From sequence record OR845743.1: a stretch of DNA of 1,676 bases; one strand, 5' to 3'. Of this stretch, positions 1-805 are shown piece after piece (position 1 is the stretch's first letter; every line of letters starts with the position of its first letter). Below the pieces are notes generated by a model, which did not search any database, had not been told where the DNA came from, and was given only the letters and a program-made list of their open reading frames with translations. A program made the position numbers and the translations under genes. Source of the DNA: Escherichia phage ECO95 1-6-1.

Positions 1-805
1 GAACGGTATCGAGCAGCTTTAACAGCTCAGGGAATCGGGATTCGAAGAAGTGTGGCTGCGTCTCGCGCGGATTTGCCGGACTGGTGATGTTCTTGCCGAA
101 CATGCAGCCTTTCGCCGTCAGCGACCAGAATTTTTTGATGTTATTAATCGCGGTACGGCTGTATCGTTCACGTTGTTCAACGATCCCCAACTTCGCCATC
201 TGGTGATATGCCTGATTAGCTGTCAGGCGGATACCATACTGCTTCAGCAGTGCACTCAGTGACAGCGTGGGGCGGCTTGAGCCATCAGGCGCGTCAGCAG
301 GAGCATCAATGGCATAGCGCGGTGCCAGATTCGGTAAGCCAACAGCCTCCTGAAGTTTCTGACAGGCACCAAGCACTGATGAGTTAGACAGATTTAACTC
401 CCGGCGCATAAAGTCCAGCAGAATCACGCCAGCCTGCATCTTGTCAGCAGCCTGCCCGGATAATTTTTCCGGTGCGCTGGTTACCATGTCGAAAGTGCGG
501 ATCACCTTCAGATGGAATGACGGGCTGATCCACATTGCATAGGCATACACCAGTTCCTTACAGACATACGTTCCCCGTTCATTTCCCCCATGAATCACAC
601 TCACCGGGTCAACACCCAAATTCTGGGTGTTGGTCAATTCATGAACAAGCTCAACAGTTTGTTGGCTGGAAAGAAACTTTCCCGGCTCCTTGGTTCTGGC
701 ATTTGCACCAGATGCTACTGCTGCGCGATGCAGATCGTTCAGGCTATAACGTCCATAAGCATCACGACGAACTTCAATACCATCAATGACCATCAGATTA
801 TTCAT
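1..805 (-). CDS. KilA-N domain protein, antirepressor-like (Ant/Roi-type); 3' end truncated by the window edge (at least 268 aa)
   Basis: Not in the ORF track because it has no in-window stop. Manual translation from ATG 805..803 is open to position 1: MNNLMVIDGIEVRRDAYGRYSLNDLHRAAVASGANARTKEPGKFLSSQQTVELVHELTNTQNLGVDPVSVIHGGNERGTYVCKELVYAYAMWISPSFHLKVIRTFDMV... The N-terminal ~100 aa have the KilA-N (APSES-like) pattern. The later part (...LSALLKQYGIRLTANQAYHQMAKLGIVEQRERY...) is compatible with an antirepressor-type C-terminal domain, but this is weaker. Strong GAGGAG Shine-Dalgarno 9 nt upstream. Confidence 0.7.
   Translation of the reverse strand, partial: MNNLMVIDGIEVRRDAYGRYSLNDLHRAAVASGANARTKEPGKFLSSQQTVELVHELTNTQNLGVDPVSVIHGGNERGTYVCKELVYAYAMWISPSFHLKVIRTFDMVTSAPEKLSGQAADKMQAGVILLDFMRRELNLSNSSVLGACQKLQEAVGLPNLAPRYAIDAPADAPDGSSRPTLSLSALLKQYGIRLTANQAYHQMAKLGIVEQRERYSRTAINNIKKFWSLTAKGCMFGKNITSPANPRETQPHFFESRFPELLKLLDTV

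Follow-up and report, generated by a model that had tools for sequence, protein, structure and literature searches.

A KilA-N gene in the early operon of lambdoid prophages with a position-conserved, covarying palindrome inside a hypervariable cassette

Why does a gene for a KilA-N domain protein stand directly behind the Holliday junction resolvase gene rusA in Escherichia phage ECO95 1-6-1, and what might the protein do? The window analyzed here is the whole stretch of 1,676 nucleotides from sequence record OR845743.1, and all of its genes are on the minus strand. The KilA-N gene occupies positions 1-805 of this strand with codons 1-268 of 269. The first-pass annotation had considered it a possible accessory insertion, with an antirepressor, a host-killing or takeover factor, or cargo as candidate functions. 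As first framed, the finding is a correct but ordinary observation: this is a common, uncharacterized prophage gene in its usual place. Three things are new here. A C-terminal module of the protein is defined, the slot of the gene is optional only on a deep scale, and a single-copy palindrome with covarying arms lies in a recombining cassette of the gene.

The alleles of the KilA-N gene encode proteins of 265, 269 (two kinds), 280 and 286 amino acids, which are near-identical outside residues ~25-78. The variable part is a hypervariable mosaic cassette of approximately codons 25-78 (positions 570-734, minus strand), in which the DNA identity is 30-57% between flanks of 93-100%. Four cassette types were found in a sample of IMG/VR loci, which consists of 80 loci with a 99%-identical RusA, 79 of them with enough downstream DNA. 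The window carries type 1. Within the cassette lies a 23-bp palindrome, CAACACCCA-GAATT-TGGGTGTTG on the sense strand (positions 610-632, codons 58-66). This is the sole strong palindrome in the whole gene, and it encodes the loop between a helix (residues 48-60) and a strand (residues 68-71). The other cassette types possess different palindromes at the same aligned place. Compared with type 1, an E. coli variant, CGATACCCAAAATTTGGGTGTCG, carries a double change from A-T to G-C.

To what extent is the position of the palindrome conserved? The survey used one genome per species and comprised 79 loci. The best palindrome of the entire gene was located at aligned residues 59-68 in 53 of the 65 full-length homologues. 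By a local search, at least 8 arm matches were detected at the site in 71/83 genes. These include relatives that share the KilA-N domain only, from Acinetobacter, Azomonas, Zooshikella, an Alcaligenaceae bacterium, Paludibacterium and a Xanthobacteraceae metagenome-assembled genome. Across Gamma-, Beta- and Alphaproteobacterial relatives, the palindrome thus stays where it is, and its two arms change together. Examples of its diversity are CGAGTTGCAAATTTGCAACTCG, AGCGATACAGGAATTCCTGTATCGGT, AACCGCTCCTGAGATCACAGGAGCGGTT, TAACCGATGGTGGAATTCCCCCATCGGTTA, TCCAAAGGCGGAATTCCGCCTTTGGA and AGATAGACGGAATTCCGTCTATCT.

Among 57 distinct sequences, pairs 4-11 from the axis were of the Watson-Crick type in 45-57, and all four pair types occurred at pairs 5-8. 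The centre (6 nucleotides) is AT-rich, conservation is highest in the outermost C-G and G-C pairs, and pairing past pair 11 is at the chance level. In a gapless alignment of 38 sequences, 95.4% of the cells were paired, compared with 54% for shuffled and 28-42% for slid partners. The covariation score of these sequences was 0.988 versus 0.213 (0/500 shuffles), and two-sided changes were observed in all 8 pairs. For 11 of the 14 genes tested, 0-4 of 100 trials of synonymous resampling regained the observed arm length; the remaining three genes gave counts of 7, 10 and 19 per 100. Since synonymous resampling rarely regenerates the palindrome, the codon choice is constrained. The peptides encoded at the palindrome (TNTQNLGVD, SELQICNS, SDTGIPVS, TAPEITGAV and DRCSDVSIA) have no common motif.

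We also looked for the pattern outside the gene. The type 1 pattern was confined to the KilA-N gene in 17.7 kb of an O157 prophage and in all 44.5 kb of mEp460, where two extra half-sites were within chance. A covariance model searched against 256 kb from 20 sources detected KilA-N genes only; this model misses the odd-length type 1 site and is insensitive for that type. A standard repeat scan of the window, which at its settings passed over the palindrome, detected no other repeat. No report linking KilA-N with such a palindrome was found in the literature searched.

What, then, does the palindrome do? We favour, with a probability somewhat below one half, a double-stranded self-site that would be bound by a dimer of the KilA-N protein. 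The KilA-N protein is the simplest partner because the palindrome follows the KilA-N domain into genes without the C-terminal module and lies in the DNA of the variable segment. Double-stranded DNA is favoured by the scarcity of wobble pairs, with 2 G-T and 3 A-C among 456 stem cells. In the proposed mechanism, the dimer would bind the palindrome in its own gene, and the bound protein would act in lytic growth as a sequence-specific regulator or self-site binder, like Roi of phage HK022. It would then be no antirepressor of the classical kind and no toxin encoded by an inserted cargo cassette. The variable protein segment and the site would be exchanged together as one recombination cassette, giving allele-specific pairs. 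Since the site is inside the DNA encoding the variable part of the DNA-binding domain, one recombination event could swap specificity and target together. By analogy with BstA and its DNA element aba (described below), the protein and its embedded palindrome may form a cognate pair with self-recognition or immunity-like types, a proposal that we regard as possible and rather doubtful.

Several points weigh against a self-site of the KilA-N protein. We infer the partner of the palindrome solely from the palindrome being tied to the gene. The alignment rows were centred each on its own best local palindrome, and the paired fraction is inflated by this procedure; the position test over the whole gene is free of the bias, and so is the way the flanks agree in the gapless alignment. 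The type 4 and SfV alleles have an intact gene but a decayed palindrome, GGTGGAATTCCGCC. No 12-mer within 5 kb on either side tracked type 1 versus type 2 (40 versus 25 loci), so that a second target site was not found there, and the few 12-mers tracking types 3 and 4 look like clonal linkage. No strong internal palindrome was detected in HK022 roi, in bstA of prophage BTP1 or in two rha genes. The likeness of the C-terminal module to winged helices, described below, comes from non-significant matches (best E 0.12). Finally, 6 of the 57 distinct palindromes, including that of the window, are of odd length. An odd length shifts the half-sites by 1 bp, and a hairpin loop accommodates this more readily than the fixed spacing of a dimer does.

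A hairpin is indeed the main rival explanation. The palindrome would then act in the mRNA or in single-stranded DNA, with a cis effect on the translation, processing or stability of the KilA-N message, and the function of the protein would be unrelated to it. The sense strand can form a 9-bp stem with a 5-nucleotide loop (centroid -14.5 kcal/mol), and the covariation pattern is as expected of a stem. Furthermore, the loop length varies (spacers of 0-6 nucleotides, with odd and even totals), and the frame is fixed in 41/57 sequences. However, G-U wobbles fill 2 of 304 cells, and this scarcity, like the near-equal G-T and A-C counts given above, is unusual for so diverse an RNA stem. In addition, the folding z-score is just -1.76, no Rfam family was matched, and the hairpin is not a terminator because it has no T-run. 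We consider the hairpin unlikely, although it is the strongest competitor of the self-site.

The integrity of the gene was also analyzed. From the ATG at 805-803 (minus strand), the frame runs for 268 codons without a stop to base 2 in the open reading frame (ORF) analysis. The rusA stop codon TGA is at 827-825, and the gap between the two genes (positions 806-824, minus strand) is 19 nucleotides. It contains a Shine-Dalgarno sequence, GAGGAG, at 820-815, which is 9 nucleotides upstream of the ATG. The spacing and the frame given in the first-pass annotation are thus confirmed. It had also stated that the C-terminal domain runs off the window, and this is not the case. Full-length homologues of the protein have 269 amino acids and terminate in LLDTVH*, and the window edge falls after the first base of the final His codon. 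Thus, the C-terminal domain is wholly within the window, and just the last codon, of which two bases are missing, and the stop codon lie to the left of it.

The sequence of the gene was compared with two other copies. Against the copy in Escherichia coli O157:H7 AC-3, the nonsynonymous divergence (dN) was 0 and the synonymous divergence (dS) was 0.113; the DNA differed by 1.3% and the protein was identical over 268 amino acids. Against the copy in Yersinia phage YeP1, dN/dS was 0.064. These values show that the KilA-N gene is real and under purifying selection. The ORF is intact in all loci, and together with the dN/dS value this rules out a pseudogene. Three antisense ORFs of 70, 84 and 90 amino acids were tested, and none matched a PHROG family.

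Some gene calls in Logan/ENA deviate from this structure. P0002-P0006 and P0010 are RusA/KilA-N fusions of 401-405 amino acids, which are assembly errors or cases of pseudogenized rusA; in P0002, whose sequence was read, there is a frameshift near the 3′ end of rusA. In P0001 (339 amino acids), the stretch of the C-terminal module from AIDAPADA... to ...GCMFG (~70 residues) is duplicated internally.

Which domains does the protein possess? The KilA-N domain covers residues 7-109 (positions 479-787, minus strand), with the predicted order b-b-a-a-a-b-b-a-a. Pfam KilA-N (PF04383) matched with an E-value of 2.4e-22; the match scored 79.3 bits, with the cut-off at 23.8, and covered profile positions 5-105 of 107. 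The domain named in the first-pass annotation is therefore present. A full-length AlphaFold2 model had a predicted local distance difference test score (pLDDT) of 74 and a predicted template modelling score (pTM) of 0.40, with a pLDDT of ~80-88 in the KilA-N domain (1-109). Because of the pTM of 0.40 for this multi-domain model, the whole-chain Foldseek search is uninformative. The Foldseek matches with the APSES domains of Mbp1 and PCG2 were non-significant (E 0.35-0.66). PADLOC detected a weak PDC-S22 match alone, on the KilA-N core, and no NCBIfam model matched. Sequence searches of the PDB with the protein and with a C-terminal profile gave nothing usable.

The KilA-N domain is followed in the AlphaFold2 model by a helical hairpin of the protein (residues 116-154; positions 344-460, minus strand), which is a possible dimerization element. 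Next comes a conserved linker, LPxLxPxYAIDAP...GSSxPT (residues 159-177; positions 275-331, minus strand), which is modelled at low confidence (pLDDT <50). Across distant relatives, few stretches are as conserved as this linker: Y164 is invariant, and P162, D167, S176, S177 and T180 are nearly so. The linker could serve as a short interaction motif, or it could become folded only upon binding.

The C-terminal module (residues 179-268; positions 2-271, minus strand) has the order b-a-a-b-b-b-b-a and an invariant GKN...RETQPH. In the full-length model, it appears as an alpha/beta domain of residues 180-267. When residues 176-268 were modelled alone, the pLDDT was 90.2 and the pTM was 0.78. The top PDB matches in Foldseek were the winged helices of PadR, LmrR, RTP, MarR and DnaD-N, all non-significant (best E 0.12; TM 0.36-0.38). 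Weak Pfam PadR matches were observed in 13 of 78 module-bearing proteins (best E 0.0036). From these two sets of matches we call the module winged-helix-like, and with low certainty the model resembles a winged helix. A BFVD structure search of the module gave no significant match; the best one (TM 0.60) was a 'putative DNA-binding protein'.

An Ant/KilAC-type C-terminus had also been considered at first, and it was not found. For the window protein, Pfam ANT/KilAC (PF03374) did not match at E-values up to 0.1, and hhalign of the C-terminal profile against the ANT-bearing Roi gave a probability of 0.14%. Among the 78 proteins, 2 relatives matched ANT/KilAC, at E 0.18. These 78 are the window protein and 77 distant full-length relatives. 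They were drawn from 788 relatives that phmmer detected with residues 111-268 among 1.84 billion cluster representatives. Their N-domains were Phage_pRha in 28, Bro-N in 17, KilA-N in 9, ORF6N in 6, AntA in 4 and P22_AR_N in 1. No Pfam model covers the shared C-terminal part. The Bro network is a set of domain-swapping phage proteins, some of whose domains have nuclease links (PMC10111431). On its domain composition, a KilA-N N-domain with a module that is elsewhere joined to other N-domains of the network, the window protein belongs to the Bro network. The C-terminal module is a distinct domain of this network without a Pfam model. Joined to other N-domains, the same module is encoded next to the repressor in Pseudomonas phage F10, and in an E. 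coli prophage it lies upstream of DnaB.

Two other genes of the network carry internal palindromes of unusual strength as well, in the stretch that codes for the N-domain. In F10 gp36 (L089 3626-4423), which combines Bro-N with the same C-terminal module, the palindrome CAAACCGGCAAATCGCCGGTTTG is at codons 52-59 (p 0.04). In phage LLS gp46 (L095 1812-2504), which is of the Rha+ANT kind, AAGCGCTCAGCTGAGCGCCT is at codons 29-35 (p 0.03). The embedded palindrome may extend beyond KilA-N to other Bro-network genes.

Is the KilA-N gene an insertion at all? In O157:H7 AC-3, a repressor and a Cro-like gene are followed by ymfL, DUF4222, a helix-turn-helix replication protein, PerC, Dam, an ORF with the LexA DNA-binding domain, and RusA; then come KilA-N, DUF968, an antitermination protein and holin. 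The gene after KilA-N encodes a DUF968 protein of 329 amino acids (PHROG 96, 'HNH endonuclease'), which starts 7 nucleotides past the KilA-N stop. The antiterminator Q, about which the first-pass annotation had asked whether it is the next gene, comes behind it. All 79 informative IMG/VR loci had RusA, the KilA-N gene at the same gap, and then DUF968. In the same loci, the LexA-domain ORF was missing in 8, and Dam and Q were often replaced. The block of RusA, KilA-N, DUF968/HNH and Q is fixed in lambdoid prophages of the SfV, mEp460, ST64B, cdtI and Stx2c types. It is kept at ~67-71% protein identity in Leclercia, Mangrovibacter and Yersinia phage YeP1; the KilA-N gene overlaps DUF968 in YeP1, whereas the two are 7 nucleotides apart in E. 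coli.

More distant phages gave a different result. The KilA-N gene is absent from mEp390 (RusA 72% and DUF968 63.5% identical) and from Pantoea phage AH07, in both of which the rusA stop directly overlaps the DUF968 start. In phage LLS, a gene with Phage_pRha and ANT domains, which is the Roi architecture, occupies the slot before DUF968 and Q. From these three phages, the position between RusA and DUF968 is an optional slot for Bro-network genes. Judged by the gene orders compared, the slot appears to be optional on a deep scale, and it is filled and fixed in this lineage.

Signals of an autonomous unit were also searched for. No terminator-like site was detected on the minus strand of the window. 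No convincing promoter was found near the KilA-N start, where the sole promoter-like match (824-797) ends downstream of the ATG. The window contains no exact LexA box, and two matches with 1 mismatch are inside coding sequence and at the chance level (22/200 shuffles). The GC content is 0.50-0.55 across the KilA-N gene versus 0.53-0.58 in the flanking genes. The KilA-N gene thus belongs to the early rightward operon, with its own ribosome site and without its own promoter or terminator. The lack of a promoter and a terminator, the neighbour-like GC content and the fixed block in close relatives argue against a moron, that is, an autonomous cargo cassette. Of the accessory insertion proposed at first, the part that stands is the optional slot on the deep scale; a recent moron insertion is not supported by the 79/79 loci, the GC content and the missing signals.

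At the other end of the gene, 2 of the 79 loci (L031 6235-6750 and L044) carry an extra ORF of 171 amino acids without a Pfam family, exactly between the KilA-N stop and the DUF968 start. The ORF at this junction is a real insertion.

The strict adjacency of the KilA-N gene to DUF968 (7 nucleotides or an overlap), with nucleases on both flanks, raises another explanation. The protein might be a helper in DNA metabolism for RusA and DUF968/HNH, for example a targeting subunit, or the palindrome might be a recombination hot spot for the exchange of cassettes. The nuclease links of Bro-network domains (PMC10111431) agree with the former, and the mosaic boundaries, which bracket the palindrome, agree with the latter. 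However, RusA-DUF968 pairs do without the KilA-N gene in mEp390 and AH07, proteins sharing the C-terminal module sit in other places, and the palindrome is also present in KilA-N genes without this module. We assign little probability to this explanation.

An antirepressor, which would promote induction by binding the CI-type repressors of its own prophage or of co-resident ones, should be considered against the same operon. True antirepressors, P22 Ant for example, are found in the Bro network. F10 gp36, which shares the C-terminal module, is annotated 'anti-repressor Ant' and adjoins repressor genes, and the window protein itself gave a weak match to PHROG 2127, 'anti-repressor' (E 0.0012). 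Several lambdoid prophages per O157 genome could cross-talk, since the module reaches up to 4 copies per genome. In contrast, the operon is transcribed only after the repressor has been inactivated, and the gene has no separate promoter and no LexA box. The functional class of antirepressors (P22 Ant, Gifsy GfoA and 186 Tum) is marked by separately regulated expression, through a LexA box or a secondary immunity promoter. The C-terminus is not ANT/KilAC, and the antirepressor annotations were made by similarity alone. Moreover, one and the same CI (at least 92% identical) accompanied each of the four cassette types, and at least three CI types were seen alongside type 1. Thus, the cassette does not track immunity, which is a weak argument against a cognate antirepressor. 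Taken as a whole, an antirepressor is improbable, and the proposed self-site for the KilA-N protein continues to be the reading that we favour.

The neighbouring genes in the window are as follows. The upstream neighbour rusA occupies positions 825-1214 (minus strand) and matched Pfam RusA (PF05866, E 4.3e-15) and PHROG 34. Upstream of it, the ORF with the LexA DNA-binding domain only (108 amino acids; positions 1211-1537, minus strand) overlaps rusA and dam by 4 nucleotides each. Its Pfam E-value is 4.4e-18, and it matches the first 91 positions of TIGR00498 lexA, without the S24 peptidase part. Judging from this domain content, it could be a non-cleavable LexA look-alike. This ORF comes and goes: in the 8 of 79 close loci from which it is absent, dam abuts rusA. 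The remainder of the window (positions 1534-1674, minus strand) is the 3′ end of a phage N-6-adenine methyltransferase gene, with 46 codons and the stop.

Three further genes lie outside the window. The DUF968 neighbour (L001 6999-7988) has a C-terminal HNH-like motif, CACCG...HHLIGHG...CRKHHDELH. It is distantly related (~25% identity) to PdcB, annotated in such P1-like phages as RCS47 and phi456, and phage P1 records contain an unnamed match of the same identity. The Q-like antitermination protein (L001 6233-6985) gave weak matches to DnaJ-type CXXCXGXG zinc-finger models and to anti-TRAP. In mEp460, gp41 (L176 33097-34248), a 'Rha' of 383 amino acids, is encoded between the cro side and the replication gene and is a second Bro-network protein. 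With gp41 in addition to the KilA-N protein, mEp460-type phages carry two Bro-network regulators.

How common is the gene? Of 5426 complete E. coli genomes, 2325 contained the 1676-bp module by megablast, and so did 53 phage records, which include mEp460, cdtI, SfV, phages encoding the Shiga toxins (Stx) 2c and 2a, and Salmonella phages such as ST64B. SfV orf44, ST64B sb46, cdtI orf50 and mEp460 gp48 (RefSeq WP_001061444.1) are the same gene in the same place. They share the order dam, LexA-domain ORF, rusA, KilA-N gene, DUF968 and Q, and no difference was noted; in SfV, this order reads dam, orf42, orf43 (rusA), orf44, orf45 and Q. SfV was sequenced more than 20 years ago. All copies are annotated as unknown, as hypothetical or by a domain name, as in mEp460 ('KilA-N domain protein'). 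The SfV and mEp460 records show that the gene and its arrangement were already catalogued. In the literature searched, we found no functional study of this KilA-N gene.

The gene is therefore among the commonest in E. coli prophages, including Stx-converting phages, and has been in the databases since phage SfV. The palindrome is a concrete, testable lead to the function of the KilA-N family in lambdoid phages. Many 'Rha/Bro/KilA-N' proteins, moreover, share a distinct, unmodelled C-terminal domain. Should protein and palindrome truly form a pair, the hypervariable cassette would be accounted for. After BstA and its element aba, the pair would be the second case in which a KilA-N protein's gene conceals a specificity site. 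KilA-N genes of Proteobacteria and of their prophages would then hold many mutually exclusive types, in a system present unnoticed in ~40% of E. coli genomes. Consequences for interference or cross-talk among the lambdoid prophages that share one O157 cell are also conceivable, and Bro-N and Rha genes may hold similar embedded sites.

How does this gene compare with known systems? P1 KilA has an N-terminal KilA-N domain in common with the window protein. This likeness is what speaks for a host-killing or takeover factor carried as cargo. P1 KilA, however, has a KilAC/ANT domain, which the window protein lacks, and P1 kilA lies in the kilA-repL operon, whereas the window gene is in a lambdoid nin-type operon. 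The hallmarks of a moron are absent, and a domain name does not establish a function. A killer of this kind is very improbable.

HK022 Roi and LLS gp46 are similar in arrangement. Both are two-domain Bro-network proteins encoded between the replication genes and Q, and in LLS the gene directly precedes DUF968 and Q. Clerget and Boccard reportedly described in 1996 the binding of Roi to a site within roi. The differences are in the domains and in the site. Roi consists of Phage_pRha and ANT (ANT match 9.7e-33), whereas the window protein consists of KilA-N and the unmodelled C-terminal module. A strong palindrome is absent from HK022 roi, whereas LLS gp46 possesses the one at codons 29-35. Roi has been implicated in lytic growth (PMC3430580).

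BstA of prophage BTP1 has a KilA-N-like N-domain and a second domain, and it is switched off by a cognate DNA element, aba, that lies in the bstA locus itself (PMC8585504). Different BstA variants go with cognate elements of their own, and aba is a 63-bp element at the gene start with direct repeats (PMC8585504). The window gene is similar in that a KilA-N-type N-domain is combined with a second domain and that its locus has a candidate for a specificity-carrying DNA element, the palindrome. By analogy, the protein might be a phage-exclusion or abortive-infection protein, and the palindrome might be a self-immunity mark sparing only a phage with the matching allele. Allele-specific palindromes that are swapped along with the variable protein segment, and the common occurrence of several module copies in one genome, are consistent with this idea. 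However, BstA is expressed in the lysogen from its own transcription unit downstream of cI, whereas the window gene is between rusA and DUF968 in the early rightward operon, which is lytic. In addition, an element at the gene start with direct repeats is not an internal palindrome. The window protein is not a BstA homologue: it reached E 0.43 in BLASTP and 0.6% in hhalign, and the BstA model of PADLOC matched BstA (1.9e-124) and not the window protein. An exclusion function of the BstA kind is accordingly quite improbable.

The last comparison concerns the DNA site that the favoured self-site reading proposes. The operators of lambdoid immunity are palindromic and coevolve with the DNA-binding protein. 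As in the palindrome of the KilA-N gene, symmetry is kept in these operators while the sequence differs between specificity types. The KilA-N palindrome differs from them in that there is one site per phage, and this site is inside the coding sequence of the variable segment of its putative binder.

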